Part shown: positions 15,818 through 62,422 of the stretch, in pieces
Numbering within the stretch: the first letter of the stretch is position 1
Layout of the letters: each line of letters begins with the position of its first letter
Virus record (IMG/VR): IMGVR_UViG_3300032237_000561
Coordinates: 1-64,000 of that record
Strand: one strand, 5' to 3'
From: a virus
Taxonomy: Duplodnaviria > Caudoviricetes
DNA: 64,000 bases
The notes under the pieces: model-generated
Told to the model about the DNA's origin: nothing
Seen by the model: the letters and a program-made list of their open reading frames with translations, nothing else
Database searches by the model: none
Program-made: the position numbers and the translations under genes

Positions 15818-15867
15818 CCTGTGATGCCCCTGGTGGGTGTCCTGAATAGACAGAAGGAGGACCCACC
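15818..15867 (+). promoter_or_regulatory. CCTGTG-N17-CCTGAA motif with SD-sequestering hairpin (putative late promoter)
   Basis: Same motif and spacing recur at 20397, 22571, 28570, 45284 and 62422(-). ggtgggt..cct pairs with agg-acccacc over the RBS. Confidence 0.6.
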
Positions 15868-15870
15868 CCG

Positions 15871-17751
15871 ATGCGCCGTGTTGTTTCTGCCCGCGAGCAG
15901 GTGGAGATGCTGTCCTGGTTTCGACAGGCTGCTCCTGGCGAATTTACCCCTGGTGCTGGGCTGCCGTTGTCTCCTAAGGCCACCCCGCCGCCTCGTATTC
16001 AGAACCCTGGTCCGGCAGCGATCCCGCAGCGCGCCCCGGAGAAGCCGCTGCCCGAAGGCGACTGGGTCTCGCACCCGGATTGGCGTAATGCCTCCGACGG
16101 CCTGGCGTTTTACTCTTCGGTCCGACCGCCGATATCCTCAGACGTGCCGCATCCCAGCGAGGTGCTGGACCCATCCAACCCTGATCACGTCGAACGCCGC
16201 GTCTACAAAGTCACCCACCCCAAGACCAAGTCCGTCACCGAATACCATTACCCATCATGGATCGACCAGGCCAAGGATTCCGCCGACCCGGTTAACGACC
16301 CGTGGGGCGTGCAGACCATGCCCGACAAGGTCATCCACTTCCCCAACGGCATCCCCAAGGGCGAAGACGGCAAGACTCTGACCACCAAGCGTGGAGTGCC
16401 GGTTGATAAGGACACCCGCTGGCGTAACCGCAATGGCATCGACATTTCCAACGCGCACGGCCAGCCGGACAACACCCCCGAGCAGTTGGTGCAGAACCGG
16501 GTTGGCCACGAGCAATCGGCCACCCCGGAGCAGCACGAGAACCGCACCTGGTACCGGGGTGCACACGAGGAAACCAAGAACCTCGCCGACAAGACCCACG
16601 GCGACCACGAGCGCGTGGTGCACACCGTGTCGGCATTCTCTCCCAAAACTGAGTGGGACGAGAACATGGAGAAGGCGTTCCACTGGACCCTGAACAACCG
16701 CCCCGGCGGCGTGGGGCCGGGCGAGGGGCAAGCCTCTGAACCGTCGGTGCCGGGAATGCAGTCCCCGGTCAGCAAGGCCAGGGACATCTACAACCTGCCC
16801 GACGGCGAGTTCCAGAAGGTCAACCAGGGTCCGAAAACCTCTTCGTTCGCCAACAACATTCTCGACGACACCCCGGAGCGGGAGCCGCGCCCTGGCGTTC
16901 CCGACGACCACGGCTTCTATCAACATCAGATCAATCCTCACACCGGTGAGCCGGACTGGCGACTGCACACCGACCAGGACACCACTGTCGACACCCACGA
17001 CGTGCGGATGGCCAATACTGCTCCGCAGCAGCCCGGCGAGTCTCGCGAGAGCTACATGGGAAGACTGCGTCAGCTGCGTTACGAGACCCCGCTTCAGTTC
17101 GGCGCGAAGATCACTATGCCCGCACCCCGGCAGCAGGATGGGGAGTCGCACGAGGATTACTTCAAGCGGCTCAGTGATTCGGGCTTTAGCCCGACCATGA
17201 AGGAAAACGGCAAGGTGCATCCGGGCAAGGGCAAGACTCTTTACCCCGGCTACGAGATGATGGCCCGCAGCAATTGGGAGGCCCGCCGTCGCCTGAACGC
17301 CGCCGAGGAAGACCCTCTGCGTCACCGCGTTCCTAAGCAGGGCCAGAGCGTCACCTGGGGGAAATTTAAGGACGACCTGGATGAGGCTAAGAATAAGCAC
17401 ATGCCGCAGCCCGGCGAGCCACTCAAGAGCTTCCCTGACGATCCCACCGGAGAAGCGGTGGAGCAGTGGATGTCGAGAAATCCGCTCAAAGAACCGATAC
17501 CGCGCTACCGACGCGATATACGCAACGACAAGGGCGAATCGTACTGGACCGACCCGCGTCGACCTGACCTCGGCGATATTCGGCAGGCACCAGGATACGG
17601 TTTCCAGCCCTCGCACATGCGGCGCAAGAGCTACATCGAAGAACTTCTTTTTTCGGTCTCAGACACGTTGCAGCGCACCGCATTTGTCGATGAGGTAACA
17701 GAAACCCGGCATGTGCTGGCCTGGGTGGAGAACCTTTTCGGGGAACGCTGA
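15871..17751 (+). CDS. Leader-bearing protein 1; DUF7178-like (remote helix-hairpin-helix glycosylase-like) domain
   Basis: N-terminus MRRVVSAREQVEMLSWFRQA. Motifs WYRGAH, SAFSP..W..N, GPKTSSFANNI, TVDTH and QSVTW recalled from this phage family. Confidence 0.6.
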   Translation: MRRVVSAREQVEMLSWFRQAAPGEFTPGAGLPLSPKATPPPRIQNPGPAAIPQRAPEKPLPEGDWVSHPDWRNASDGLAFYSSVRPPISSDVPHPSEVLDPSNPDHVERRVYKVTHPKTKSVTEYHYPSWIDQAKDSADPVNDPWGVQTMPDKVIHFPNGIPKGEDGKTLTTKRGVPVDKDTRWRNRNGIDISNAHGQPDNTPEQLVQNRVGHEQSATPEQHENRTWYRGAHEETKNLADKTHGDHERVVHTVSAFSPKTEWDENMEKAFHWTLNNRPGGVGPGEGQASEPSVPGMQSPVSKARDIYNLPDGEFQKVNQGPKTSSFANNILDDTPEREPRPGVPDDHGFYQHQINPHTGEPDWRLHTDQDTTVDTHDVRMANTAPQQPGESRESYMGRLRQLRYETPLQFGAKITMPAPRQQDGESHEDYFKRLSDSGFSPTMKENGKVHPGKGKTLYPGYEMMARSNWEARRRLNAAEEDPLRHRVPKQGQSVTWGKFKDDLDEAKNKHMPQPGEPLKSFPDDPTGEAVEQWMSRNPLKEPIPRYRRDIRNDKGESYWTDPRRPDLGDIRQAPGYGFQPSHMRRKSYIEELLFSVSDTLQRTAFVDEVTETRHVLAWVENLFGER

Positions 17752-20084
17752 TGGCCCGCCGGATCGTCACGGCCCGTGAGCAGGTGGAGATGCTGTCCCC
17801 CTGGCGGCGCGAGGCTCTTATCAAAGAGGCAAAATACCCGCAGGTGTGGAGCGGCAAAGCCCCCTACGGACACCTCCCTTCGGGTCGCGCCCGTAACCGG
17901 CCACCGTCGGTGCGCCGCGATGCCGATGATCCTAATTCGGAGATTATCGACCCGAGCGAGATTCGCTATGAAGAATATGGTGATTCGGTTTCGGCCTTCC
18001 ACCCCAATGGCGAGCATATGGGTAACTATTCATGGGAAGACGATGGCGATCACGCCCACATCGGTATCGCCCAGGTCGATCCCAGGTATCAAGCGCAGGG
18101 TGTTGCTGGTGGCATCATCGACCACATTCGCGAACATCACCAACCTGACCTCGCCCATTCTGGGTACCAGGGTAATGGCACACTAAGTTATCAGGGCCGT
18201 GCCGGTGCCCTGCGCGACTTGGGAAACACCGAAGAAGAACACAACGATTACTTCAACACCACCCCATACAACTACGGGGAGTCACAGCCAGCGCAATTTA
18301 GTCTAAGGGACCCTGGTGGTGGAAGGAAGATACCCACCAAAACCGATGCCCAGCAGCGGGCGCATGACGAGTTGGTGCGGCAGTTCGAGGAAGACAAGAA
18401 CCACCCGAATTTCACAGGACAGCGCAGCAACGGCTCTTACTCTGGTAACTCAGACATGGTTGACGAGTATGGCGACCGGCACGAGTATGGCCACGACTCC
18501 GACGGCAATTATGTCGGAATATCTGACGGCAACAAGGATTCCGACGGGTACAGCGAAGAGGGCTACAACAGCGGAGGCTACGACCGCGACGGCTATAACC
18601 ACGAAGGTCTCGATCAAGAGGGCCGTGACGAGTACGGGTTCTCTGGGAAAACGGGACTAGACCGGGACGGGAAAACGCGGCACGGGTATACCCCCGGAGA
18701 CGGTACAGCTCCTGAGGGCACGGTCCCGATGAGTCAGATGGCGGAATATGCCAGTTCCCGGCACATCGCTCCGACGATGTATGCCGTGCGGCACCCCGGT
18801 GAGGTCAGCCCACACTCTGGTGGCCACCACGTCGGCAACGGAGACACCCTGTATTCCTCGCTGGATCGGGCGCGTGAGGTGGCCTACCATCCCGATGACC
18901 CCAGCAAGGACAAGAATATCGTCAGCGTCAATCACCTCGACCCCGATTATTTGCACACCGACGCAACAGGGTCGAGTCCTTGGGACTTTCACTATGCCCC
19001 CGTGTCGCCAATGTGGGATGCCGAAGATACGGCCTCTACCCCGGCGAGCGTCGTCCACGACCCGCAACGCCATCAGCGCATCCTGGGCGACCTGGGGCAT
19101 GGCTGGAGCCAGAGCACCGAGTCGCCCCTGAGCGAGAACTCGGGATTTGAATACACCGACCCAAACAGCGGTCGCACTGGCCGCATGTACCAGGAGCGCA
19201 ACGGAACCTGGGCCACACAGCATGAGCCACTGTTTGGTGCCCGCAGGCAAAACCGATACGACAACCACCGCGATGCCGCTAACGCCATCCGCGAAGGAAC
19301 CCAGCCCGGCCCCACAATGGACCAGCACGCCCTGGAGGTCAACAATAACTACGAGGCCACAGGGGGAGGCAATGTGGACTGGGACCCGCATCCCAATGGT
19401 GGGGGACTCATGGCGAGAACACCTCACGGCGACCTGCATCTGACCCAAGACCCCAATACGGGATACTGGAACTACCACGCCGGGCCGCACGGTTCCCAGC
19501 CCGGCGACGAGGGCGGCATAAGAAGCCCGATTCCTGAAAACAGCCCAACCCGCGCCGCCGCATACGGCATTCAGTCCATCACCCGTCGCCCATTTCACGG
19601 CGGTCTGGCCGACGAACTTGGCGACGGGTGGGGGCCGCACCCATCGTCAGTAGGGGGCTATGCGCGGCGGCTGCCGTCGGGCAATCATGCGTTTGTGAGG
19701 AAAAACGACGACGGGACCTACAATTCGGGTATTCAACGAGACAACGGCTGGGGCCAGCCATACGGACGGCCAACAGTTAATCGGGACAGCCCAGACCTTG
19801 CCCAAGCGAAGGAATTCATCCATCACCGCGAAAATCCTGTTCCGGCCAGTGAACTAGGAAAGGGGTGGGAAGATGAAGACGGGGGGCCTCGGTCATTCCC
19901 TGTCTACACCCAACAAGGTTATCATCCCTCTGGGGCCAATGCCATTGTCGCCTGGAGCAATCAGGGTGGCTGGAGACCTGGCGTGTATCACCAGGGAAAA
20001 TCGTATAACTCTCCTTTACACAAGACTCCCCATGAAGCTGCCAATTGGGCCAACAACCTCATGGATGACCTCGGTAACAAATAA
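17751..20084 (+). CDS. Leader-bearing protein 2; GNAT acetyltransferase + acidic pentapeptide repeats + repeated small domains
   Basis: N-terminus MARRIVTAREQVEMLSPWRREA. Acetyl-CoA motif A VDPRYQAQGVAGGII. GY[DNS]xx repeats at ~18460-18690. Three LGxGW-initiated modules. Confidence 0.7.
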   Translation: MARRIVTAREQVEMLSPWRREALIKEAKYPQVWSGKAPYGHLPSGRARNRPPSVRRDADDPNSEIIDPSEIRYEEYGDSVSAFHPNGEHMGNYSWEDDGDHAHIGIAQVDPRYQAQGVAGGIIDHIREHHQPDLAHSGYQGNGTLSYQGRAGALRDLGNTEEEHNDYFNTTPYNYGESQPAQFSLRDPGGGRKIPTKTDAQQRAHDELVRQFEEDKNHPNFTGQRSNGSYSGNSDMVDEYGDRHEYGHDSDGNYVGISDGNKDSDGYSEEGYNSGGYDRDGYNHEGLDQEGRDEYGFSGKTGLDRDGKTRHGYTPGDGTAPEGTVPMSQMAEYASSRHIAPTMYAVRHPGEVSPHSGGHHVGNGDTLYSSLDRAREVAYHPDDPSKDKNIVSVNHLDPDYLHTDATGSSPWDFHYAPVSPMWDAEDTASTPASVVHDPQRHQRILGDLGHGWSQSTESPLSENSGFEYTDPNSGRTGRMYQERNGTWATQHEPLFGARRQNRYDNHRDAANAIREGTQPGPTMDQHALEVNNNYEATGGGNVDWDPHPNGGGLMARTPHGDLHLTQDPNTGYWNYHAGPHGSQPGDEGGIRSPIPENSPTRAAAYGIQSITRRPFHGGLADELGDGWGPHPSSVGGYARRLPSGNHAFVRKNDDGTYNSGIQRDNGWGQPYGRPTVNRDSPDLAQAKEFIHHRENPVPASELGKGWEDEDGGPRSFPVYTQQGYHPSGANAIVAWSNQGGWRPGVYHQGKSYNSPLHKTPHEAANWANNLMDDLGNK

Positions 20085-20150
20085 CCTGTAGCTTAGTTAT
20101 AGTGTGCTATAGTGGACATTGAAGATAACCCACACACAGAAAGGTTTCCC

Positions 20151-20396
20151 GTGGAACCCAAGATTGTCGGCCCCTTCTCCCCCACAGAAGGTTCCAATAC
20201 TCGTATCCTCAAGATGGTCCAGGGCGACCAAGTTCTCGGGGAACTCTTCTACTACCAATCCACCGGCACCGTTGTGCATGTAAGACCCGGCAAGGGGCCG
20301 GTCCACGACCGGCTCGTTCAGGAAGCCAAGGGTCGCGGGCTGCTGCACGGCAAAGACATCCCCGATCATCTCCAACACGACCAAGAGCAACGGTAA
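20151..20396 (+). CDS. Hypothetical protein (81 aa)
   Basis: GAAAGG RBS before GTG 20151; extended -10-like TGCTATAGT at 20105-20113. Confidence 0.55.
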   Translation: MEPKIVGPFSPTEGSNTRILKMVQGDQVLGELFYYQSTGTVVHVRPGKGPVHDRLVQEAKGRGLLHGKDIPDHLQHDQEQR

Positions 20397-20440
20397 CCTG
20401 CCACCCACTCCCTGACCGCCTCTAATACTTAGAGGAGGTC
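20397..20440 (+). promoter_or_regulatory. CCTGCC-N17-CTCTAA motif with SD-sequestering hairpin
   Basis: gacc-g-cctctaa TAC ttagagg-a-ggtc (20414-20440) pairs over GAGGAGG. Confidence 0.6.
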
Positions 20441-20450
20441 TTCTTTCGTC

Positions 20451-21422
20451 ATGTCCCGCCGTATCGTCACTGCTCGCGAGCGGGTCGAGATGCTGTCGCC
20501 GTGGCGTACCGCCGAGCGGGCCGACAGGTTTGAGTGGGAACGCAGCTTCGACGGCCCCGGCGGCTGGATTCTCGTCACCCGGACCCCGGACGGCAACCCT
20601 GTCACGATCAGGACCGAGCCGACCAGGGGACAGCGTAGTGCCGCATTAGGGTCTGACAGGCCCACTACCGCAATCAACATTAACGACACCCACCAGGACT
20701 ACACCGGACAGATTCTGCGCGGCGAGAAGACCGTTGAGACCCGCAACACCAACTCGCTAAGGCCGTTGATAGGCGGCAGGTACGGAATCTCTCGCACCCA
20801 CGACAGCCGCAAGGTTCCGGCAATGGTGGTCGGCTACGCCACCCTCGGCGAGCCGAAGCTGTACGAGAACGCCGAAGACTTTGATGCCGACTACGACCTT
20901 CACCAGGTCGGCACAGATTCCCCGCACCACTTCAATAAGAGCCACACCGGGGTTAAGTTCGGCTACCCGCTGCACGACGTAGAGCAGGAGCCAGAACCGT
21001 TCCCGCCAGGACCGGGCAATCAGAAGTGGCGGTCGATCACCGCCATCCAGCAGCCCCCTGAGGGCCTGAACTTCCAGCACTGGGCGACCAACAAGCAGAT
21101 CGCCGATCACTTCGGTCGGTTCAATATGCCGATCATCGCCCCGGCGGTCACCGCTCATCTCAACGGCGAGATGGTCGGGTCGGTGGAATGGCACCCACAT
21201 TACGACAATGCCCCCGACCGGCGGGGCGAGGTCTCGATGATCAACGTCCCAGATAAGCACCAACGAAAGGGGATCGGGACCGCCCTGTACGACTGGGCGC
21301 GCACCAACGTGGAGCCGAACCTGCACCACTCACCGTTCCAGAGTTACGACGGCGAGGCGTGGGCCGCTGCCGAGGAGGACCGGCAGCACGAACCGTCTTA
21401 CCACACTTCCGCACTGTTTTGA
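20451..21422 (+). CDS. Leader-bearing protein 3; ASCH domain + GNAT acetyltransferase
   Basis: N-terminus MSRRIVTARERVEMLSPWRTA. ASCH signature ILRGEKTVETR. GNAT motif A VPDKHQRKGIGTALYD. Confidence 0.8.
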   Translation: MSRRIVTARERVEMLSPWRTAERADRFEWERSFDGPGGWILVTRTPDGNPVTIRTEPTRGQRSAALGSDRPTTAININDTHQDYTGQILRGEKTVETRNTNSLRPLIGGRYGISRTHDSRKVPAMVVGYATLGEPKLYENAEDFDADYDLHQVGTDSPHHFNKSHTGVKFGYPLHDVEQEPEPFPPGPGNQKWRSITAIQQPPEGLNFQHWATNKQIADHFGRFNMPIIAPAVTAHLNGEMVGSVEWHPHYDNAPDRRGEVSMINVPDKHQRKGIGTALYDWARTNVEPNLHHSPFQSYDGEAWAAAEEDRQHEPSYHTSALF

Positions 21423-21616
21423 TAAGGGGAATCGTATTGAATTTCGAAGCTATTGCCAGCGTGGTCATCATCACAGGATGGGCCTGTTTGTTCGGTTACG
21501 TCCTGACCGGATTACGTGAAGAGGAAGAGATGTCAAACCCCCCGGTTCCCTCACCAAGAGGTGAGGGCCGGTGCCGTCGGCTCCTCACCACCGCTAGAAA
21601 TCTAGGAGCACAATTT

Positions 21617-22561: not shown

Positions 22562-22570
22562 TTCCCGGAC

Positions 22571-22639
22571 CCTGTGGTCGGGGTCGCTAGGCTCCTGAAC
22601 AGGTGAGGGGGTTGTCCCCTCCCTAGTGAAGGAGCCTAG
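22571..22639 (+). promoter_or_regulatory. CCTGTG-N17-CCTGAA motif with perfect 10-bp anti-SD stem
   Basis: ctaggctcct (22587-22596) is the reverse complement of aggagcctag (22630-22639), which contains the RBS of the 22641 gene. Confidence 0.65.
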
Positions 22640-22640
22640 T

Positions 22641-23306
22641 ATGACCACTTCCACCCAAGAAGCGCGCAAGTCGCTGCGCGAGCTGCGGGAATCGACCGGA
22701 ACGCTGTTCGCTAAGAACAACACTTCCACCAAGATCACCTGCAACACCGACAGCGTCAGCTTTGAGCTGGAGCCTGCCGGATACGACGACTCGATCCGCA
22801 TCGTGCCCAAGGAGTGCCTGAACGTCCCCGGCTTCCAGCGTCTCTGGATGCGGAACGCCGTCTCGATCTCCGATGACGACAAGATGGAGAACGAGATCAC
22901 CCTCCTCATGGGTGGCCAGGTTGCCTACACCCCCAAGGTGTATACCGTCGACAAGGACGGTGCCGCCATCGAGGTCGAGGCTGAGATGACCGAGAACCCG
23001 GCCAGCCGGGACATCGTCATGAAGGAGTCCGGCGATCCGACCGGGCGCGACTACACGATCCAGACCGAGCAGCGGTGCATCGTCTCCGGTCAGCCGGTCT
23101 ACATGACCCAGAAGCAGATCGACGAGGGCGAGCCGCCCCTGCACCCGGACTACGCCTTCGAGCGTTCTCGGATCGTGTCCACCCCGTCGCCCGACGGCAC
23201 CTGGAGCCATCAGCTGGTCCAGATCGAAACGGTCGCCAAGCCCGCGCCTGCGGCCAAAAAGACCCCTGCCAAGAAAGTCGCTCCCCGTAAGAGCACCGGC
23301 AGCTAG
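22641..23306 (+). CDS. Hypothetical head-region protein with Lys/Ala-rich tail
   Basis: Strong RBS and codon bias; ends PAAKKTPAKKVAPRK. Confidence 0.75.
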   Translation: MTTSTQEARKSLRELRESTGTLFAKNNTSTKITCNTDSVSFELEPAGYDDSIRIVPKECLNVPGFQRLWMRNAVSISDDDKMENEITLLMGGQVAYTPKVYTVDKDGAAIEVEAEMTENPASRDIVMKESGDPTGRDYTIQTEQRCIVSGQPVYMTQKQIDEGEPPLHPDYAFERSRIVSTPSPDGTWSHQLVQIETVAKPAPAAKKTPAKKVAPRKSTGS

Positions 23307-23320
23307 GAGAGAAGGAAGAT

Positions 23321-28568: not shown

Positions 28569-28569
28569 C

Positions 28570-28608
28570 CCTGTGAAGGCTGCCACCCCCACCAATAAGA
28601 CGTAGAGG
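28570..28608 (+). promoter_or_regulatory. CCTGTG-N17-CAATAA motif upstream of the sheath gene
   Basis: Same upstream hexamer and spacing as the other copies; no clear anti-SD stem. Confidence 0.5.
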
Positions 28609-28629
28609 GCATGGAAAGGGACTTACCAG

Positions 28630-30345
28630 ATGGCCATCGACTTCACCACGTACAACCCGCCGGGAATTTACACCGAGTCGGTAGGCGGGCCACAGCTCGC
28701 CGTCCGTTCGACGGTGCCCACCGCTGTGGCCATCTTCGGCACCAGCGTGGGTTACAAGACCTACCGCGAAGCGGTCAAGATCAACTCCGACGCGGCGAAC
28801 ACCCCCGGCGGCGACGTGGTGCCGCAGAACAGCAAAGAACTGACCAAGGCGGGCATCAAGGTCCTCACCGACGAAGACGGGTTGATCCCCAGTCCTGTGG
28901 TCATTGTGGTCGCGGGCACCACGGTCGACCTCACGGCCCCCGGATCGTCATTGACCGGGGTCAAGCCCGACGGGACTTCCGGTGCGGTCACCCTCACCGC
29001 CGGTGACTTGATCTACCTGAACAACCAGACCCCTTCCACGCAGAACGGTCTCTACACCTGGAACCGGGCAGCCGACGATGAAGAAGACGGCGCGGCCCTG
29101 ACCGTCGTGGTGGACACCTTCAAGCTGCTCAACCCTGACACCGGCAAGGCTTACATTCGTGGCCTGGACTACCTGATTGTCAAGACCGACTCCGGTGCAG
29201 GCAACCTGAATACCACCCGCGACGACAAGTACGCCATCAGGCGAATCGACCGTGGTGCCACCGCAGGAATCCAAGAAGGCAAGTACGTCCAGGCTTTTTA
29301 TCGCTACACCAGCAAGGACTACCACGCCGTCCATGCTCTTTACGACTACGACGATGTCCGCGAACTCTACGGTGAGCCGTTTGATTCCAACGGCAATATC
29401 CTGTCCGAGATCACTCTCGCCGCGAAGTTCGCCTTCATCAACGGCGCGTCTACGGTCCTGACCTGTGCGATAGACCGCGAGACCTATCCTTCAGAGGCCC
29501 GAGCCTACGAAGAGGCCCTCAAGCTCTTCCGGGACGAGGACCAGATCGCCATCATCGTGCCCGGCACCGGTGACAGCTACATCTATGAGCTGGTCAAGGA
29601 GCACGTCAATAAGCAATCCGAGAACAAGTACGAGCGTCGTGCCCTCCTGGGAATCGACGGCTCGGTTAACTCGGTCGAGACCAGCATCCGTCAGGGCTAC
29701 GCCGAAACCCTATCCAGCTCGCGTATCGGTCTGATCACTCCGAGCCGGTTCGAATACTACGCACCGGAGCTGAGCGACAAGGTCATTCTGGGCGGTCAGT
29801 ACATGGCTGCGGCGGTGGCCGGGAAGAGCGTCTCCCAGATCGCCTCGATGCCGCTGACCCGTAAGGTCATCGACGGTTTCGTCGGTCCCGCCGAGTCGCC
29901 GATGCAGCGTGAGGGCGAGAAGGACCTGGAGACCCAGGCCGGTCTGATGGTCATCGAGAAGACCCGCCGCAACCAGGTCCAGGTCCGACACGGGGTCACC
30001 ACCGACTTCTCGGAGCTGCTGACCCGCGAGTGGTCAATCATCGGCCAGCAGGACGTGATGGTCTACCGAGTCCGGGACTTCCTCGACGCAGACGGCCTGA
30101 TCGGCATGCCGATCTACGACACGACCCTGATTCAGGTCAAGGCCAGCGCGGAAGCCGCCCTGCAGACCCTGATCCGGGACGGGATCATCGTCGGCTACCA
30201 GAACCTCAAGGTCCGCCAGATCGCGACTTTGCCAGACGTGATCGAGGTCCGGTACGAGTGGAAGCCCGCCTACCCGCTCAACTACATCGTTGTCCGGTAC
30301 AGCGTCGCCGTCATGACCGGCGACGTGACCATCACCAACGTCTAA
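28630..30345 (+). CDS. Contractile tail sheath protein
   Basis: N-terminal Y.PPGIYTE, AAAVAG..S..PLT.K, VRHGVTT and C-terminal YEWKPAYPLNYIVV sheath motifs. Confidence 0.9.
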   Translation: MAIDFTTYNPPGIYTESVGGPQLAVRSTVPTAVAIFGTSVGYKTYREAVKINSDAANTPGGDVVPQNSKELTKAGIKVLTDEDGLIPSPVVIVVAGTTVDLTAPGSSLTGVKPDGTSGAVTLTAGDLIYLNNQTPSTQNGLYTWNRAADDEEDGAALTVVVDTFKLLNPDTGKAYIRGLDYLIVKTDSGAGNLNTTRDDKYAIRRIDRGATAGIQEGKYVQAFYRYTSKDYHAVHALYDYDDVRELYGEPFDSNGNILSEITLAAKFAFINGASTVLTCAIDRETYPSEARAYEEALKLFRDEDQIAIIVPGTGDSYIYELVKEHVNKQSENKYERRALLGIDGSVNSVETSIRQGYAETLSSSRIGLITPSRFEYYAPELSDKVILGGQYMAAAVAGKSVSQIASMPLTRKVIDGFVGPAESPMQREGEKDLETQAGLMVIEKTRRNQVQVRHGVTTDFSELLTREWSIIGQQDVMVYRVRDFLDADGLIGMPIYDTTLIQVKASAEAALQTLIRDGIIVGYQNLKVRQIATLPDVIEVRYEWKPAYPLNYIVVRYSVAVMTGDVTITNV

Positions 30346-45283: not shown

Positions 45284-45327
45284 CCTGTGGTGGCCCTCCA
45301 CAGCGACCATAACTACTGAGGAGGGCC
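45284..45327 (+). promoter_or_regulatory. CCTGTG-N17-CCATAA motif with SD-sequestering hairpin
   Basis: ggccctcc-a-cag (45292-45303) pairs with ctg-a-ggagggcc (45316-45327). Confidence 0.65.
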
Positions 45328-45330
45328 GCG

Positions 45331-45780
45331 ATGAGCTACAGCCTGGCCATTGTCGATGGCGACCTGGCCCAGAGGGGTTCGCGGCTGGATGCCGTCTACG
45401 GTGTGGACAAGCTCAAGCAGGACATGTACTGCTGGCTCACCGAGAGGTACGGCGGGGACCGTTTCCATGTCAACATGGGGTCCATCCTTGAGGAATTCAT
45501 TGGCGGCATCGCCAAGGAGTCCACCCGCGTCGAGGTGCAGTCCGAAATCTTCCGGGTCCTCCAGAACTACCAGGCCATGCAGCTACGCCGATTCAAGGAA
45601 AACCCCGAGAAGATGTCGTCCAGCGAGCTGCTTCTCTCGGTCGAGGACATCGTCGCCAAGATGAACTACGACACCATCTGGGTGACGGTCAAGGTTCGCA
45701 ACGGCTCCAAAGAGTTCACCACCATCAAGATCACCAGCGGCCAGGGTGCCGGACAGATGATCAACCCGCCGAACCGATAA
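45331..45780 (+). CDS. Baseplate wedge/sheath initiator (gp25/GPW-like)
   Basis: GDL...G..KL.QD...L.E.YG.DRFH..MGS.L..FIG motif; precedes baseplate J. Confidence 0.8.
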   Translation: MSYSLAIVDGDLAQRGSRLDAVYGVDKLKQDMYCWLTERYGGDRFHVNMGSILEEFIGGIAKESTRVEVQSEIFRVLQNYQAMQLRRFKENPEKMSSSELLLSVEDIVAKMNYDTIWVTVKVRNGSKEFTTIKITSGQGAGQMINPPNR

Positions 45781-54896: not shown

Positions 54897-54897
54897 G

Positions 54898-55919: not shown

Positions 55920-55926
55920 ATCAGGA

Positions 55927-55955
55927 ACGATACATGAGCAACAGCTTGATTGCAA
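55927..55955 (-). promoter_or_regulatory. SigA-type promoter, leftward
   Basis: TTGCAA-N17-TATCGT on the minus strand. Confidence 0.65.
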
Positions 55956-55991
55956 ATCATGTGACAAAAAAACTTCTCTGCCTGGCTTATG

Positions 55992-56020
55992 TTGACATCA
56001 TGATGTAGTGAGAGTACCGT
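55992..56020 (+). promoter_or_regulatory. SigA-type promoter, rightward
   Basis: TTGACA-N17-TACCGT. Confidence 0.75.
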
Positions 56021-56057
56021 CAATACTGTCACCACCCACCGACCCAAGGAGCACCGC

Positions 56058-56558
56058 ATGACCCGCAGCTACGAGCGCGACGGCAAGCACTACGATTTCG
56101 CCGTCCTGACCCATCTGGTCGAGACCGGCGAGGCCACCTTCTACGAAGGCCCCTCCATCTACGTCATCAAGACCGAAGACGGCACGGTCGCGGTCCGCCC
56201 CCATCAGGTGATCTTTACCTCGACCCCGGCACCCTTCACCCTGACCCAGGTCGAGGAGATCGCCGCACCCTCACCGATGGACGGCTACTACGGCCAGGAA
56301 CGCTACGACGGCGAAGACATCGGCCCGCACGGCGTGGTCTTCCAGGGCGCGCAGGAGCTGGCCGTGAAGTTTCTGGGCGATAACCCGGACGGCATCGACC
56401 CCCTGGAGATCGTCCGCCGCATCCTCGACGACCAGACCGGCGAGTACACCCGGTTCCTGCAGAACGAGATCGACGGTACTGCGCCCCTCGCCCGCCGTAG
56501 CTCATCCTGGGTCTCGGCGGACGAGGAGGATGAAATCCTGAAGCACTTTGGTATCTGA
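56058..56558 (+). CDS. Hypothetical acidic protein
   Basis: AAGGAG RBS, downstream of the promoter. Confidence 0.75.
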   Translation: MTRSYERDGKHYDFAVLTHLVETGEATFYEGPSIYVIKTEDGTVAVRPHQVIFTSTPAPFTLTQVEEIAAPSPMDGYYGQERYDGEDIGPHGVVFQGAQELAVKFLGDNPDGIDPLEIVRRILDDQTGEYTRFLQNEIDGTAPLARRSSSWVSADEEDEILKHFGI

Positions 56559-56618
56559 GACCGTTTCATGCTACAGTGAGCATGTAGCATCCACACACTA
56601 TCGAAAGGAGCCATCCAC

Positions 56619-56810
56619 ATGGCGAAGAAGACAAACCCCGGCATCGTGATGGCCCCCGCCATGACCCAGGCCCAGCTGCAGAAGCTGCTCGGCCTGCGGA
56701 GCAGCTCTGCTGCCCTGCCCCAGGCCAGCAAGCGCGATCTACTGGGCCGTCGCAACGGCAAGATCGCCCGCCGGAACCGCGCCGAGTCCCTACGCCGGGA
56801 CTCCTGGTAA
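56619..56810 (+). CDS. Small basic hypothetical protein
   Basis: GAAAGGAG RBS; TGCTACAGT extended -10 upstream. Confidence 0.65.
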   Translation: MAKKTNPGIVMAPAMTQAQLQKLLGLRSSSAALPQASKRDLLGRRNGKIARRNRAESLRRDSW

Positions 56811-56849
56811 AACCAAAAAACTCCACCCACCCACTCAGGAGGAACCCTG

Positions 56850-57089
56850 ATGACGAAGTATCCCAGTAAGGAAGCCCGCGAGATCGTCAAGATGGCCCGC
56901 AAGCTCGGGTGGGCCTTCATCGGGTACACCGGCACCAATCATCTACTGCTGGTCCACGAGAACGGGAGCCGCTACGTCCTGGCCGCGACCCCCTCTAGTC
57001 ACCGGAACCGAGCGAACTCGATCTCCATGCTGGAGAAGCTGGCCGGGTGCAAGCTGCACCCTAAAGGCCGGATGAGACAGGTCAGCTGA
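56850..57089 (+). CDS. HicA-like (dsRBD-fold) protein
   Basis: REIVK.A..LGW.....G.NH....H..G....L..TPS pattern with the conserved His; AGGAGG RBS. Confidence 0.6.
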   Translation: MTKYPSKEAREIVKMARKLGWAFIGYTGTNHLLLVHENGSRYVLAATPSSHRNRANSISMLEKLAGCKLHPKGRMRQVS

Positions 57090-57417
57090 ATTTCTCCAGG
57101 GAATTGACGAAACTCGACCATACGACCTCGTCGTGGCCGTTCTCTCCCGGCGGTCGCGGTCTCCCGGCCTTCATCCAAGCACGATGAGCCTGGTATCCGC
57201 CCGGAATAGTTTTCGTCCAGGGTCGGCGGAAGTATTCGGCCTCGTTGCCTTCATGCAGGATGCCGATGGCCCGCAGAATCATCGCCCACCGCTCCACACC
57301 GCGCTTGACGCGGCGTTCGGATTCGGAGCCGGGTTCAATGGGCACGGCACCGATCCTATACCACACCGCCCAAGAATCGTTACCCGAAATTTCACTGGGT
57401 AGTGACGACGAACACAT
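57082..57417 (-). CDS. Hypothetical protein (start uncertain)
   Basis: Only plausible frame filling the gap; W-rich globular-looking sequence. Confidence 0.4.
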   Translation of the reverse strand: MCSSSLPSEISGNDSWAVWYRIGAVPIEPGSESERRVKRGVERWAMILRAIGILHEGNEAEYFRRPWTKTIPGGYQAHRAWMKAGRPRPPGENGHDEVVWSSFVNSLEKFS

Positions 57418-57465
57418 GGGAATAGGTGAGCGGCACCGTGCCGAACGGGATCGAGGTAATCGCCT

Positions 57466-57735
57466 GTGGCTTTGTCCGAGCATTACGAACGAGCCAATGA
57501 CAGCCTGGTCAAGCGCACCTGTAAGACCTGTGAGTGGTACAAGACCATGCCACCTCATGAGCAGGACTTCTTCGACGAGAAGGTCCGCGAAGCCCTCCTG
57601 ACGCGGGGGAACATGCAGCGTCTGCGTCGGGCCGTCCTTGCCGAAGGTCATGAGGTCGCCCGGTCGACCTTCCACGGCCATGTCCATGAACATCATCTGG
57701 AACTATCCGCTCAACGGCGGGAAGGAACCCTGTGA
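57466..57735 (+). CDS. Small Zn-binding/HTH-like protein
   Basis: CKTC...H...H ligands; GTGA-coupled to the phosphoesterase gene. Confidence 0.65.
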   Translation: MALSEHYERANDSLVKRTCKTCEWYKTMPPHEQDFFDEKVREALLTRGNMQRLRRAVLAEGHEVARSTFHGHVHEHHLELSAQRREGTL

Positions 57736-58907
57736 GCCTCGAAGATTCCTGGGACGAAGTCAACGGCACCGATGATCAACATTCCTGGCGGGCCGACTGG
57801 GCCGGTGACGAGGGCACCATCACCACCGGCGCGCTACCGGACGGATTCGACCCCCACGATTTTGACGAGGTCCTGAACCGGCTCGGCTACGCCCCCGGCG
57901 AGGTCCGCATGGAGCTGGTCTCGGCCAGCCGGTGGGAGCAGCGGACCGCCGTCCGGGGCGACGACGGACGTAAGACCGGCGAGATGACTTCGGTCTACCT
58001 CAACGCCTACAAGTACAAGGCCTTGAGAAACGCCTTCATGGTCAATCTCCCGGCTTTATACGCCGCCGTGAAGGCATCCCGGCCCAGTAAGTCCGAACCC
58101 AAGCTCACGGGCCGCTCAGCGGTCGTCTGCTGGGCTGATATCCAGGTGGGGAAGACCGATCACCTGGGGGGCCTGGAGGAGCTGCTTCAACGCCTGGAGG
58201 ATAAGCGGGTCGCACTCCAGGCGTGGCTCAAAGAGGAGAAGATCGACCATGTCGTGCTCTGCGATGTCGGCGACATCGTTGAGGGCTTCGAGAACGTGTC
58301 GTCCCAGACCCGGACCAACTGTTTGAGCCTGATGCAGCAGATCGACACCGCCGCCACCGAGTTCTGGCGCACCATCAAGGTCTGCGAGAAAGCCGGTCCG
58401 GTCGATGTGCTTTCCATCCCGTCCAACCATTGCCAGTGGCGCAAGGGCAAGGGACTGGTCGGTAAACCCGGCGACGACTGGGGGCTGCACATCTCTCAGC
58501 GTCTGGAGCAGCTCAACGAAGAAGCCGGACTTCGGGCAACCTTTCACCGCCCCGATACCGACTGGAACGAGGGGATGACCTTCAAAGTGGGCGGCGGCAT
58601 AATCGGCCTGGCTCACGGCCACCAGGCCAGCGGACCTAACGGAATCATCCCCTGGTGGATGAAACAGAAGCACCAGGGTCGGCTGTGCTGCGACGTTTTG
58701 GTCACCGGACATTTTCACTTCCCCAGCTTCCGGCCCTCCGGTCGCGACCCGGAGACCGGCAAGTCCAGTTACCACATCCAGGCATCTACTCTCGACAACG
58801 GTTCGTCCTGGGTGGCCAACAAGTTTGGTGAAGACGGGGACCCCGCTTTGACAGTTTTTGTGATGGACCAGGATGGTTTCGACGTTCGCAGTTTCGCGCT
58901 ACTTTAA
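57732..58907 (+). CDS. Calcineurin-like metallophosphoesterase (Mre11/SbcD-like)
   Basis: DIQVG, GDIVEG, SNH, AHGH and GHFH metal-binding motifs. Confidence 0.85.
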   Translation: MSLEDSWDEVNGTDDQHSWRADWAGDEGTITTGALPDGFDPHDFDEVLNRLGYAPGEVRMELVSASRWEQRTAVRGDDGRKTGEMTSVYLNAYKYKALRNAFMVNLPALYAAVKASRPSKSEPKLTGRSAVVCWADIQVGKTDHLGGLEELLQRLEDKRVALQAWLKEEKIDHVVLCDVGDIVEGFENVSSQTRTNCLSLMQQIDTAATEFWRTIKVCEKAGPVDVLSIPSNHCQWRKGKGLVGKPGDDWGLHISQRLEQLNEEAGLRATFHRPDTDWNEGMTFKVGGGIIGLAHGHQASGPNGIIPWWMKQKHQGRLCCDVLVTGHFHFPSFRPSGRDPETGKSSYHIQASTLDNGSSWVANKFGEDGDPALTVFVMDQDGFDVRSFALL

Positions 58908-58920
58908 AGGGGCTGGACAC

Positions 58921-59226
58921 ATGCAGGTGAGGGTCATCAAGTTCTTCGGTCGAGAAGTGCTGAGAATCGAAAACCATTACGAGGCAACGGTTTCCGATGT
59001 CATCAAGGCGATGATTGAGGCACGCGAGGCGACTGAAGAAATTCAGTACGTCTGCGAGTGTAGCTGTGGCGATGAGGAGGACGACGACGAGGAGGAGAGC
59101 GACGAAGAAGGCATTCGAGGCAGGTTCTCTGACATGACCGACCGGATTGTCTGGGATGCCCGAACCGACGACTACCCGCTCCCGTTTTCCAACCCCGATA
59201 ACGAAGAGGACGAGCCTAAACCATAA
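58921..59226 (+). CDS. Acidic hypothetical protein
   Basis: ATG 58921 with upstream AAGGGG; poly-D/E tract. Confidence 0.55.
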   Translation: MQVRVIKFFGREVLRIENHYEATVSDVIKAMIEAREATEEIQYVCECSCGDEEDDDEEESDEEGIRGRFSDMTDRIVWDARTDDYPLPFSNPDNEEDEPKP

Positions 59227-59719
59227 TTTCGGGTCGTCCCAAGTCGACAATATCGGTGAGTAAATGCAGCTTGACCTGGGGCAGCGCGTGAGTAGGTCCG
59301 TGACCAAGATCAGTAAGTGTTGACTTGTCTAACAGCTCCTGCGCTTCGGCATAGCCGACAAAATTAACAATGTTTTCCCGAACAATCGCCAAGATATAAA
59401 TGTCTGCCGGATTCTGCGCCTTCTTAGGGGTCGCGAGCAGACGACCATCTGTTCGGGTAGTCGCCTTGATGTCGATACGGATACCGTCAATCACCGAATC
59501 AATGCTTCCGCTACGGGGCTTGACTCCGAAATCTGGATAAGTGTTAGTGGCCTTGCCCCAGGCCATCTCGGCCACCATGCCGGTCATCTCAAGCTCAATG
59601 GCCTGATGGTTTTTGTCAAGCCTCCGGTCGATGACACTCAACGACTGGTTGATACAACGCCGCATAGTCGACATGAAATGAACAACACCCATTTCGCTGG
59701 GATTAAGTTCGACAATCAT
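59216..59719 (-). CDS. PD-(D/E)xK-like nuclease-fold protein, putative
   Basis: G..AE, D and IDIKAT motifs; TAATG coupling to the helicase; visibly lower GC. Confidence 0.55.
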   Translation of the reverse strand: MIVELNPSEMGVVHFMSTMRRCINQSLSVIDRRLDKNHQAIELEMTGMVAEMAWGKATNTYPDFGVKPRSGSIDSVIDGIRIDIKATTRTDGRLLATPKKAQNPADIYILAIVRENIVNFVGYAEAQELLDKSTLTDLGHGPTHALPQVKLHLLTDIVDLGRPEIMV

Positions 59720-61581
59720 TACGGTGCCTCTCCGAACAACAGCCATTCCAGGTTGTGGTTCTCATCGCGGGTGGAAAGGTCACCATAACTAAGTTCTTCT
59801 TGAGTTCCTTGCACCGCTGCGGCGAGTCGCCGACGATTTTCGCAGGTCTCCCACACCCGCTCCTCGACCGAGTCCTCGGTGATGAGGACGTAAGCCGTCA
59901 GGCCGTCCAGGTGGGAGTCGGCGCGGTCGATGCGGGCGTTGCGTTGGGCCAGGTCGTCATAGCTGTAGGTCGGGTCCACGTTGATCACGTAGCGGGCCTC
60001 TTGCAGGTTCAGGCCGTGGGTCCCGGCATCGCTGGAACAGAAGGCGGTGATGTTGGGGTCGGCTTTGAACCGGTCCTGGGCGCGCTGAGACTCTTTGGCC
60101 GACTGGCCGGTCCCGTAGTGCAGGACGTGCGGCACCGTGAGATGTCGGGCCAGCGGCAGCAGACCCAGCTCGGTCCAGTGGCAGAAGACCACCGCTTTGT
60201 CCTGGCCCTCCCGGATGTCGTCGAGGAGACCGTTAAGGACCTCGATCTTGGAGCTGTGCGCTGCATCGAGTAATTCAGGTCGCTCGGCGAGAAGCTCGGC
60301 GGCTTCAGGAGATGAGCTGTGCCGCAATGCTTCTGGGTTGATGCAGGCGATCCGGGCCATCAGATAGAAGGGGGACAGACCCTCACCGTTGCGGTGAGCG
60401 ATCCGGGCCTTGGCGGTGATGAGGTCGAGTAGCTCACGGGTGCCAGGTGTCGCCTGGACCGAAACCTCCAGTGTCTCAATGCCTTTAAACTGTTCCCGAA
60501 CTCCGGGGTCGGTCTTGCGGACCGCCATCGTCCGGTCCCCGACCCGGTGTCGGACCTCTTGGAGCTTGGTGAGGTTCCAGTCGTAGGTGGTGAAGGAGAA
60601 CTGCCCGCCGCTCTTGGTCCGTACCGGGACGCTGTTGACCCGGTCGGCGTAGCGGGAGATGAAGTCGGTCTTGGTCGACAGCGGGTTGCGGGCCGGGCGA
60701 CCGTCGAGGGAAAAGACATCCCTGAATCTCAGCGGATTGCCGCCGACGACGGTCGCCGACATCGGCCACACGGTGGCGGTACAGGCGGCGGTCAGCCGGT
60801 CCAGGGCCATCCTGGCCTTGTTCTGCCCGTTGTCGGTAATCAACTTGTGACCCTCGTCGAGGACCCACAAGACACGACGACCGAAGGTCAGGGCGGCGAT
60901 CTCCTCCTCGTCGTGCCACAACTTTTCGTAATTCATGACAAAAACCTGGTGCGGATCGTCATACCCCTTACGACGCTTGGCCTTGGTCCCGTCGTTGATC
61001 ACCGCATCCAGACCGGCGGGGTTGACGAAGGTCCGGCGCAGGTTTTCCTTGAGCTTGCTCAGGGTGCAGGCGATGACGAGGTCGATGTCGTCGGAGTCGA
61101 AGAGGGCCTTGGCGGCGGCACCGGAAGTGAAACTCTTTCCGGCACCGGCAGACCAATTCCAGAAGTACAGCCGGTCGGGGCTTTCGGTGCCCTGACGGGC
61201 ACGCTCCAGGGCACGATTGAGGGAGAAGGTCTGAAAGGGCCGGAGCGTGTATCCCTCGATCTCCAGGGGCTGTGACCAGCGTTCTATATCAGATTGGATA
61301 TGAGCGGTCGAGGGGGTCCAGAAGACGTGGTAGCCGTCCTGGCCCAGGAGGTCGGTGAATCGACGAGCGAGGTGAACCTCGTTGAGGATCAGGTGACGGG
61401 ACATCCAGTCCTCGTAGGAGCCGTAGAACAGTCCCCGAGCGGTCGCATCGAGCGGCTCAAAGCTCAGGTATCCGGGGTAGTCGGGGTGTTCCTCGACAAG
61501 GATGATCCGGGCCGGTGGGATGCCCGAGTCCAAAAGGTCGGCGACGCGCTTCTCCACGTCATCCAGGGTGGGTAACGACAT
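59719..61581 (-). CDS. SNF2-like superfamily 2 helicase/ATPase
   Basis: LRPFQ, AGAGKS (Walker A), VLDEGH, MSAT, GTHGLNLQ.A and QRNARIDR motifs. Confidence 0.9.
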   Translation of the reverse strand: MSLPTLDDVEKRVADLLDSGIPPARIILVEEHPDYPGYLSFEPLDATARGLFYGSYEDWMSRHLILNEVHLARRFTDLLGQDGYHVFWTPSTAHIQSDIERWSQPLEIEGYTLRPFQTFSLNRALERARQGTESPDRLYFWNWSAGAGKSFTSGAAAKALFDSDDIDLVIACTLSKLKENLRRTFVNPAGLDAVINDGTKAKRRKGYDDPHQVFVMNYEKLWHDEEEIAALTFGRRVLWVLDEGHKLITDNGQNKARMALDRLTAACTATVWPMSATVVGGNPLRFRDVFSLDGRPARNPLSTKTDFISRYADRVNSVPVRTKSGGQFSFTTYDWNLTKLQEVRHRVGDRTMAVRKTDPGVREQFKGIETLEVSVQATPGTRELLDLITAKARIAHRNGEGLSPFYLMARIACINPEALRHSSSPEAAELLAERPELLDAAHSSKIEVLNGLLDDIREGQDKAVVFCHWTELGLLPLARHLTVPHVLHYGTGQSAKESQRAQDRFKADPNITAFCSSDAGTHGLNLQEARYVINVDPTYSYDDLAQRNARIDRADSHLDGLTAYVLITEDSVEERVWETCENRRRLAAAVQGTQEELSYGDLSTRDENHNLEWLLFGEAP

Positions 61582-61601
61582 GATGTGTAGAGACTACAGG
61601 A

Positions 61602-62375
61602 TCAGAACGGGTATCCATAGCGACTGGCGGTGATGTGATCGTCACGAAGCCCGTGATCCATGATCGGGTTCCAGTCATTTCCGTAATGACTGAAGTCGTC
61701 GGACTCTTCGGCGTTGTGCGGCACTCTGAGGTCTCGTATTGTCAGCGGGGCCTTCTTATGCTTGAGCATGACTTCGTACTCGTGGTTGAAGTTTCCAGAC
61801 CCGGCACGGTTGTGGTTTTCACCGGCATGATTCCAGTCGGCATCAAGGAAGGTCGGCAAGTACCGCCCGTACCCGGAAGAGTTGTATGACCCTTCCCCGA
61901 TCCCTCGACCGTAATTGTCGGCAACATCAAAGTCGGTACTCCAATGCTCCCCGGTGCCGCCCTTGGCCCTGAAACCGTCCAGAATTGCGTCGGCCAGTCC
62001 GGGGTGGTCGAACTCGCCGCCCCGGTCGTCGTAACGGATGTCAGCATCGGGGAACAGTCCAGGGTCATCGACCGGCTGGCCCTGGCCGTAGGTCATCTGC
62101 CAGACCTTGCGGAAAGCCGGGTCGTGAGTGTCAATGGGAACGCCGCGCATCAGGCGACCGACCTCACCCTTGACCTTTTCCATACCGGGAAGGGTCGGCT
62201 GGGGTAGCCGTTCTTTGCCGGAAAACTCAGAGTTTTTGGGACGAGATGCCCACTCGGCTTGGGCACCCGGATCGCCCTTGATTTTCTTCTCGTAATTTTT
62301 ACGATCCCTGGTCGGGCCATGAGTCCACGGCCCCAGCATTTCTGCTTGCTCGCGGGCGGTGATGATGCGGCGCAT
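61602..62375 (-). CDS. Leader-bearing protein 5; ADP-ribosyltransferase (R-S-E clade)-like domain
   Basis: N-terminus MRRIITAREQAEMLGPW; LMRG, HWSTD..VA..YG and EYEV motifs in the canonical order. Confidence 0.7.
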   Translation of the reverse strand: MRRIITAREQAEMLGPWTHGPTRDRKNYEKKIKGDPGAQAEWASRPKNSEFSGKERLPQPTLPGMEKVKGEVGRLMRGVPIDTHDPAFRKVWQMTYGQGQPVDDPGLFPDADIRYDDRGGEFDHPGLADAILDGFRAKGGTGEHWSTDFDVADNYGRGIGEGSYNSSGYGRYLPTFLDADWNHAGENHNRAGSGNFNHEYEVMLKHKKAPLTIRDLRVPHNAEESDDFSHYGNDWNPIMDHGLRDDHITASRYGYPF

Positions 62376-62380
62376 GAAAC

Positions 62381-62422
62381 GACCTCCTGCTGATTCAAGG
62401 CGGTCATGGCCGACACGGCAGG
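62381..62422 (-). promoter_or_regulatory. CCTGCC-N17-CTTGAA motif with SD-sequestering hairpin
   Basis: Minus strand reads cctgcc gtgtcggccatgaccgc cttgaa tcagcaggaggtc; gacc-g-cct pairs with agg-a-ggtc. Confidence 0.6.

Follow-up and report, generated by a model that had tools for sequence, protein, structure and literature searches.

What is the bipartite sequence that recurs upstream of structural genes, and once upstream of a remote gene resembling an ADP-ribosyltransferase (ART), in the tailed phage of IMG/VR record IMGVR_UViG_3300032237_000561? We analysed the first 64 kb of this 94,593-bp record (hereafter the window; CheckV completeness of the record 62%), in which a first-pass annotation had listed copies of the form CCTG(TG/CC)-N17-CnnKAA and had read them as a late promoter used by a phage-encoded sigma factor or activator. 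Most likely, the motif defines a class of phage late promoters whose consensus is new, and across most of this class it is joined to a T4-like hairpin gate over the ribosome-binding site (RBS). All statements on structure, accessibility and timing given below are computational.

The pattern CCTGYS-N17-CNNKAA matches the window seven times, compared with 0.94 matches expected from 100 dinucleotide shuffles (shuffle maximum, 4). All six copies listed earlier, with their exact 17-nt spacers, are among these matches: 15818, 20397, 22571, 28570 and 45284 on the plus strand and 62422..62394 on the minus strand. Since six of the seven matches are intergenic and intergenic DNA makes up 7.2% of the genome (G+C content 62%), the binomial probability of this placement is ~1e-6; equal frequency inside coding regions, which the first-pass annotation had named as an argument against a promoter, is thus not observed. 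The six sites lie directly 5′ of genes on the same strand, in gaps of 53–79 nt (609 nt at 62422) and at a distance of 18–41 nt from the start codon.

We repeated the search with the same two boxes at other spacings. In the source genome, mycobacteriophage Alice and the uncultured relative G001, N17 gives 8, 10 and 14 matches in the sense orientation and 1, 0 and 0 in the antisense orientation, whereas the other spacings from N11 to N23 give 0–6. N17 alone is enriched, and only in the sense orientation, which is the bipartite geometry of a promoter of the sigma-70 family (two boxes at a fixed distance of 16–18 bp).

By protein comparison, the nearest kin of the source phage are the cluster C mycobacteriophage myoviruses (Ceeclamvirinae: Alice, Tonenili and Phabba), with 51–64% amino acid identity in the tail sheath; remoter protein matches are found in Gordonia phage Skog, Rhodococcus phage Finch and Mycobacterium phage Settecandela. 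Sheaths of uncultured IMG/VR relatives are 63–68% identical. We refer to the full record of the source phage as G000 and to relatives as G001 (uncultured; 150 kb, 97% complete), G002, L009–L012 (from IMG/VR) and L061. At the sheath gene, both boxes and the N17 distance are kept, while the spacer sequence has changed, in L009–L012, Phabba, Tonenili and Alice, and likewise in Skog and in Settecandela, where box 1 reads GCTGTG; the motif is not evident at Finch. Boxes are also kept with a varying spacer at the orthologous sites of the leader, phrog_2784, baseplate, LysM, protease and ART-like genes. A scan of viral contigs with the pattern for more orthologues turned up G001 alone, and a scan of metagenome contigs by protein found no relatives.

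The strong sites of Alice indicate which genes carry the motif. They precede gp81 (which adjoins the portal gene), gp89 (LysM), gp90 (the protease homologue) and its internal start, the leader-bearing gene gp98, gp106 (with head decoration next in line), gp110, the sheath gene gp120, gp159 (a minor tail protein that has lysin activity and stands alone among tRNA genes), gp232 (a virion structural protein) and gp236 (endolysin, with holin and lysin B behind it). The sole outlier is gp69, just upstream of the structural block, and no strong site is found in the Alice replication module or in its small early gene blocks. Judged by gene content, this distribution is the signature of a late class. 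Because the motif in Alice also heads the endolysin–holin–lysin B cassette, it is not specific to virion assembly and marks late expression overall, lysis included, rather than virion incorporation as such. The link that had been drawn between the three leader-bearing genes, among them the ART-like gene, and virion assembly therefore holds for late expression but not for assembly in particular. Taken together, spacer-varying conservation, the exact N17 distance and the association with virion and lysis genes in Alice strongly support, at the level of sequence comparison, a late-gene signal with a fixed orientation and promoter-like geometry.

Alignment of 25 sites from three genomes yields a fuller consensus, aCCCTGT(G/A)-N17-C(T/C)(C/T)(G/T)AA-(t/g)Agg-T(A/G)RRGG. 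Several positions outside the search pattern are conserved: the ‘aC’ before box 1, the T at position 5 of box 1 and the A that stands second after box 2. A third box, 4 nt past box 2, consists of a T (19 of 25 sites) followed by purines that run into the Shine–Dalgarno (SD) sequence. The same 25 sites were used to seed a position weight matrix (PWM). Its scores in the full record are bimodal, with seven gene-proximal sites of at least 18.8 bits, the next at 11 bits and the remainder below 4 bits. Matches of at least 12 bits lie on the gene strand in 9 of 10, 13 of 13 and 16 of 16 cases in the three genomes, and the sole minus-strand match precedes the minus-strand ART-like gene. Each strong site sits 16–45 nt upstream of a start codon on its own strand; the distance from box 2 to the start codon varies from 7 to 45 nt. 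The third box, together with the pairing of spacer and SD sequence described next and the members at 5322, 79319, 80561 and 87588, had been missed by the first-pass annotation.

Most sites have a spacer that is complementary to the SD region of their own gene, and often the first bases of box 2 take part in this complementarity. Copy 1 (15818..15857, plus strand; CCTGTG-N17-CCTGAA-taga-CAGAAGG; PWM 28.1 bits) is located 24 nt upstream of the ATG of gene 15871-17751 (phrog_2878/DUF7178, leader-bearing) and has orthologous sites in G001, G002, Alice, Tonenili and Phabba. Here the spacer and the start of box 2 (GGTGGGTgTCCT) pair with the SD region (AGGagGACCCACC) in a hairpin at 15832..15867 (plus strand; −18.4 kcal/mol). 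Copy 2 (20397..20436, plus strand; CCTGCC-N17-CTCTAA-tact-TAGAGGA; 22.2 bits) lies upstream of gene 20451-21422 (ASCH and GNAT domains, leader-bearing), and CCTCTAA of its box 2 pairs with TTAGAGG, which overlaps the SD sequence (20414..20440, plus strand). A long-range hairpin, which encloses a small inner stem-loop, belongs to copy 3 (22571..22610, plus strand; CCTGTG-N17-CCTGAA-cagg-TGAGGGG; 29.6 bits), upstream of gene 22641-23306 (phrog_2784; homologue of Alice gp110) and with orthologues in G001, G002, Alice (60043) and Phabba (62424); GTCGCTAGGCTCCT, spanning spacer and box 2, pairs with AGGAGCCTAGTATGAC, spanning the SD sequence and the start codon (22583..22645, plus strand; −45.9 kcal/mol).

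Copy 4 (28570..28609, plus strand; CCTGTG-N17-CAATAA-gacg-TAGAGGG; 28.7 bits) precedes the sheath gene 28630-30345. Copy 5 (45284..45323, plus strand; CCTGTG-N17-CCATAA-ctac-TGAGGAG; 24.1 bits) precedes the baseplate gene 45331-45780, with orthologues at G001 93697 and G002 46590; its spacer sequence GGCCCTCC pairs with GGAGGGCC in the SD region (45287..45332, plus strand; −25.8 kcal/mol). Copy 6 (62383..62422, minus strand; CCTGCC-N17-CTTGAA-tcag-CAGGAGG; 21.7 bits) lies upstream of the leader-bearing, ART-like gene 61602-62375, and GACCGCCT pairs with AGGAGGTC in the SD region (62378..62407, minus strand; −15 kcal/mol). In the L061 orthologue (20.3 bits) the boxes are retained and the spacer differs.

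The pairing is specific to each gene. Mean duplex energies of cognate and non-cognate combinations of spacer and SD region are −19.7 versus −14.8, −23.9 versus −16.0 and −20.5 versus −16.7 kcal/mol in the three genomes, and cognate pairing is stronger in each of them (permutation p = 0.0016, <0.0001 and 0.0004). At copy 1, GGTGGGT/ACCCACC of the source genome is replaced by GGCGGGC/GCCCGCC in G001, a compensatory change, and Phabba has its arm elsewhere in the spacer with a partner of its own. Real and covarying hairpins mean that the spacer region is transcribed and under selection as RNA. The stems vary from site to site in position, length and loop size; the distance between box 1 and box 2 is constant. 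At almost every site the loop contains the ‘GAA’ of box 2 and the following four nucleotides, and there is overlap between box 3 and the SD sequence. The anti-SD arm is always upstream of the predicted transcription start (+1), even where the leader is at least 40 nt long.

To model the consequence for translation, we compared read-through RNA with RNA truncated to start 7 nt after box 2. On average, the region from SD to AUG is unpaired with a probability of 0.36 in the read-through RNA and of 0.51 when the RNA begins at the predicted +1 (Wilcoxon p = 1.3e-6). Compared with 401 genes that lack the motif, sequestration in read-through RNA is stronger (p = 5e-4) and the gain upon truncation is larger (p = 1e-4), whereas the truncated RNAs themselves are ordinary (p = 0.54).

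The facts on motif and hairpin fit a single known design, that of T4 gene e and I-TevI, and we therefore favour, with a probability of about 0.6, the view that the motif is the late promoter class of this phage group and that it carries an embedded translational gate in the form of the 5′ arm of an RBS-sequestering hairpin. Box 1 (CCTGTr) would serve as the −35-like element and box 2 (CtcGAA), exactly 17 bp downstream, as the −10-like element. Box 3, the T and purines 4 nt further on, would be the initiation region, and for this reason late mRNAs are predicted to start 5–8 nt after box 2, just ahead of the SD sequence. Host SigA alone would not suffice, and a phage-modified polymerase would be needed, in which a 179-amino-acid phage protein resembling sigma region 4 might read box 1. 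Given the complementarity between spacer and SD region, RNA read through from upstream would fold up and conceal the ribosome site in a hairpin; transcripts initiated at the promoter would lack the 5′ arm and be translatable. Of the original late-promoter proposal, the late-gene signal and the promoter-like geometry stand; initiation by RNA polymerase at the motif (rather than a signal at the RNA level), the position of +1, the late timing and the protein that reads the boxes are inferred.

In T4 gene e (lysozyme) and I-TevI, experiments have placed the late promoter within the DNA that specifies the 5′ strand of a hairpin over the RBS, and the same arrangement has been proposed for segB and Aeh1 mobE (PMC3014915, PMC2988022). 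As in those genes, the predicted promoter of the source phage adjoins the ribosome site, and RNA from upstream folds in silico over the SD sequence and start codon. RNA from the proximal promoter lacks the 5′ arm in T4, and the geometry in the source phage agrees, with the arms in spacer and box 2 and the predicted +1 in the loop. Upstream of the sites at 20397 and 62422 there are also SigA-like promoters, which could supply read-through RNA. However, T4 uses a single box, TATAAATA, read by gp55, gp33 and the clamp, in contrast to the bipartite motif and initiator box described here, and TATAAATA is present in none of the motif sites; no search was aimed at homologues of gp55 or gp33. Also, the arrangement is found at few genes in T4, whereas our computations make it the rule for most members of the class, including many virion genes.

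A second system with points of resemblance is the sigma cascade of Bacillus phage SPO1 (gp28, gp33/34), which uses bipartite promoters of its own. Like the motif, these have −35-like and −10-like boxes about 17 bp apart, differ from host promoters and mark a temporal gene class. Unlike the case of SPO1, only a domain resembling sigma region 4 was found here, no region 2, and the boxes have no sequence similarity to SPO1 promoters.

This domain is contained in our candidate for the reader of box 1, a highly conserved core protein of 179 amino acids (phrog_2931; homologue of Alice gp204) encoded outside the window at G000 78904-79443 (L036:14904-15443). A weak Sigma70_r4_2 match recurs in its orthologues in all five genomes compared (the source phage, G001, Alice, Phabba and Tonenili); elsewhere, Sigma70_r4 gives weak matches. 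Homologues are 56–94% identical across 279 metagenomic proteins and occur in about 220 phage records, roughly as many as the sheath. Finch is the only relative in which the homologue is annotated ‘RNA polymerase sigma factor’. Read by eye, the segment beginning LPLRQRQAFELICLRGYTESAA resembles sigma region 4.2. A profile search against PDB sequences gave no match. The AlphaFold2 model of the candidate has a predicted local distance difference test score (pLDDT) of 78, and Foldseek returned weak matches (all E-values >0.6). In an exhaustive structural alignment, each of the 23 top-ranking chains is a sigma factor that aligns through region 4 (Z 5.6–7.2; residues 57–123 of the candidate), and most are of the extracytoplasmic function (ECF) type, such as SigH, SigR, SigE, BldN, SigW, SigL, SigC and SigK. 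Because the match is middling, the fold is common to LuxR-type regulators and the N-terminal 56 residues are not region 2, we regard the gp204 homologue as a candidate reader of box 1, the −35 box, and not as a demonstrated sigma factor. A profile search for a single-subunit RNA polymerase (PF00940) gave no match, but its positive control was silent as well.

Several observations weigh against a late promoter with an embedded gate. No Sigma70_r2 match exceeds the cut-off in the source genome (62% complete), G001, Alice, Phabba or Tonenili, and the region-4-like fold (Z ~7) is shared with regulators of the LuxR/NarL type; the search for a sigma factor gene that had been suggested gave a region-4-like fold in a conserved protein and no region 2 match above the cut-off in these five genomes. 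Box 2 lacks A(−11) and T(−7), which characterise the −10 elements of SigA, and to our knowledge it fits no sigma consensus. The PWM seeds were chosen by the pattern, so that seed scores are circular, which does not apply to the non-seed matches or to the spacing and strand controls. At copy 6 (62422), the computed accessibility of the SD sequence is unchanged by truncation. Folding gives no strong hairpin at the sheath site (copy 4) and none at a weaker, internal copy at 5322, so that the boxes are independent of the hairpin. Finally, since the covarying hairpins prove RNA that contains the ‘promoter’ spacer to be under selection, the boxes themselves may have a role at the RNA level.

If so, the boxes would constitute a signal in polycistronic late mRNA for an RNA-binding protein or endoribonuclease, of phage or host origin, that opens or cuts the SD hairpin and so switches translation on, comparable to Mu Com, which acts on mom mRNA. 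The real and covarying hairpins, the position of the box 2 ‘GAA’ and N4 mostly in the loop and the overlap of box 3 with the SD sequence are all in keeping with such a signal, as is the resemblance of the TAGGAG-like box 3 to the ATAGGAG core of a cluster K element, the start-associated sequence (SAS; PMC3203893). We nevertheless consider it rather unlikely, since the box distance is rigid over stems of variable position, length and loop size, which fits recognition of a DNA duplex better than recognition of folded RNA. Moreover, the best-conserved site, that of the sheath gene, and the internal site are without a hairpin, and the predicted +1 never precedes the anti-SD arm, even where there would be room downstream, a restriction that only the promoter model requires. 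Alternatively, the boxes could be DNA sites for a phage regulator outside the holoenzyme, either an activator next to a weak promoter or a stoperator-like repressor. Many oriented intergenic copies are also a feature of cluster A stoperators (PMC3029335), the sigma-4-like fold equally is the LuxR/NarL helix-turn-helix fold, and the core of box 1, CTGT(A/G), recurs in the spacers of early promoters. A bipartite element whose boxes are spaced as for a sigma factor, and which has a third box where transcription would be expected to start, is, however, unlike a contiguous 13-bp operator, and the sites are confined to virion and lysis genes instead of being spread over the genome. These phages are lytic myoviruses for which we know of no repressor, and a regulator site of this kind seems improbable to us.

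Far less credible is the notion that the units are mainly factor-independent terminators or 3′-end-stabilising hairpins between late operons, with the boxes incidental. It would account for stable stems at gene ends, one of which (20419-20435) is picked up by a terminator scan, and mycobacterial terminators often lack U-tracts. Yet the 3′ arm is always the SD and start region of the next gene, the boxes are conserved where the hairpin is absent (sheath and internal sites), and a true terminator-like hairpin at 9780 has no boxes. As for an origin of the boxes by chance or from the composition of short, G+C-rich intergenic stretches, the pattern was set after inspection of the data, but the shuffle, spacing and strand controls all count against this, and the motif is kept in phages of two host genera with sheaths 46–68% identical to that of the source phage. 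Conservation and spacing effectively refute it.

The proposed late promoter class is distinct from the host-type promoters of the same genome. A scan with the sigma-70 consensus (TTGACA/TAnnnT) found none of the six sites, and with boxes CCTGTr and CtcGAA we reject recognition by SigA. The late motif shares bipartite geometry and a 17-bp spacer with host SigA and phage early promoters, but has neither a TTGACA-like nor a TAnnnT-like hexamer. The early regions carry a SigA-like class of their own, and the difference from early TTGAC/TAnnnT promoters that had been noticed at the outset is confirmed. This early class reads TTTGCG-N6-7-CTGTAG-N6-TAtcgT, is followed by CCACCCAC-rich leaders and is conserved, also in Alice and G001; members lie at 20086-20103, 56000-56060, 62940-62985 and 63310-63338 in the window and at 88646, 89552, 91449 and 92906 in G000. 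One SigA-like early promoter, at 20074..20103 on the plus strand (..CCTGTAGcttagtTATAGT..), precedes the small gene 20151-20396 and could, from its position, supply read-through RNA into copy 2. A further SigA-like candidate at 62527..62555 on the minus strand (TTGACC-17-TAAAAT) lies on the strand of copy 6, ~105 nt before it, and could do the same for that copy.

The core CTGT(A/G) is common to box 1 and to the CTGTAG element of the early promoters, where it lies 10 bp nearer to the downstream box. Because of this shared core, a single protein that represses early and activates late promoters is conceivable. The gp204 homologue would then read CTGT(A/G) in both classes and bring about a genome-wide switch from early to late transcription, an idea that we regard as speculative and doubtful. 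In early promoters the core is in the spacer, 6 nt from the −10 box, and binding would shut the promoter off; in late promoters it is one helical turn further upstream, at the −35 position, and binding would recruit the polymerase. Combined with the promoter-embedded anti-SD hairpins, this would amount to a compact switch acting on transcription and translation across a family of actinobacteriophages.

We also compared the motif with other short oriented elements. ECF sigma promoters have a −35 element with an AAC core and a −10 element with a CGT core. Box 1 (CCTGTr) and box 2 (CtcGAA) do not belong to this type, and box 2 is only loosely similar to −10 elements of the TCnAA type. In cluster K mycobacteriophages, the SAS is a contiguous 13-mer, GGGATAGGAGCCC, 3–8 bp from the start codon, with an unexplained function, and the extended form (ESAS) consists of two 17-bp inverted repeats that follow a consensus (PMC3203893). 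The motif resembles the SAS in being oriented, conserved and located just upstream of some mycobacteriophage starts, in overlapping the SD sequence and in the likeness of the ATAGGAG core to box 3. In contrast to SAS and ESAS, it has three boxes, a rigid 17-nt gap, a distance of 7–45 nt to the start and pairing that is specific to each site instead of following a consensus. Box 3 alone resembles the SAS core, and we rejected membership in either group. Cluster A stoperators are contiguous, asymmetric 13-bp repressor sites spread across a temperate phage genome (PMC3029335); we rejected this assignment too, as the motif is bipartite, has a variable 17-nt spacer and is found at virion and lysis genes only.

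The internal weaker copy mentioned above lies at 5322..5361 on the plus strand (CCTGGA-N17-CAACAA-ccaa-TAGGAAC), within the protease open reading frame 2482-6558. It is conserved at Alice 45956, Tonenili 51669 and G001 40932 and is followed by GAAAGGA and an ATG in the source genome, Alice and Tonenili; the nested ATG was confirmed to be in frame in the source genome (5383) and in Alice (46017). The motif therefore predicts a biologically sensible internal expression signal. The nested in-frame gene, 5383-6558 (MARNSIASRNKV...), has an SD sequence of its own, is conserved in Alice, Tonenili and G001 and lies just ahead of the gene for the major head protein. The annotation of Alice does not include it; its product is probably a separately made, scaffold-like, C-terminal protein. 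Three new members lie beyond the window, at 80561 (upstream of a 1458-amino-acid beta-propeller/Calx-beta protein), at 87588 and at G000 79319-79347 (19.5 bits). The last is within the 3′ end of the sigma-4-like gene, 150 nt upstream of a DUF7236 gene, and is conserved in the G001 orthologue; its location would suit an internal promoter or a site of autoregulation.

Other candidates did not qualify. The sequence GTTGCG-N17-GCTGAA at 9780..9808 (plus strand), proposed as a weaker variant, scores −8.8 bits; at 9780-9800, GGTTGCGGTCGACCGCAAC and UUU fold into a terminator-like palindrome directly after the head-decoration gene. That gene has a G+C content of 0.92 at third codon positions and, on this measure, is probably very highly expressed. 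The match at 23247 is within a coding sequence and scores −18.6 bits, and is thus a chance match; 44759, at −5.7 bits, was rejected as well. A good motif in G001 (reverse complement, 103802; CCTGGA-N17-CCTGAA-tagg-TGATCGG) has a degenerate counterpart at 57440-57470 of the window (ACTGGG-N17-TGGGAA; −3.1 bits), an apparent loss of the site upstream of gene 57466-57735 in the source genome.

The gene map of the window was made anew, with products taken from PHROG and Pfam scans. It contains genes for a LysM protein (69-2468), a head protease fusion (2482-6558), the major head protein (7154-8143), head decoration (8696-9778), a collagen-like fibre (9829-13491), the tail sheath (28630-30345) and a baseplate protein (45331-45780), and from ~54 kb onwards the replication and early region. 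The ART-like gene (61602-62375, minus strand) heads an operon that also contains a SNF2-type helicase, and its motif is kept in a 55%-identical orthologue. Residues R77, S-T147 and E199-x-E201 are invariant in 15 homologues and are compatible with an ADP-ribosyltransferase of the R-S-E type. However, the protein has no Pfam, PHROG or PDB sequence match, and its identification as such is tentative. The AlphaFold2 model (pLDDT 38) was not used.

A search of the searchable literature for a late promoter, motif or transcriptome of cluster C/Bixzunavirus phages found no description. According to a 2022 review, few late promoters of mycobacteriophages have been characterised, and they are highly active and worth investigating (PMC9262239). 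If our reading is correct, the motif would define the late regulon of more than 200 sequenced phages of the cluster C type and of their Gordonia relatives. It would allow the gene class of many unknown genes to be predicted, with the leader-tagged cargo proteins and the ART-like gene expressed late, and would provide strong, phage-dependent expression signals for mycobacterial genetics. It would also mean that an unrelated phage lineage of high G+C content has taken over, wholesale, the T4 trick by which the ribosome site is hidden in read-through RNA.

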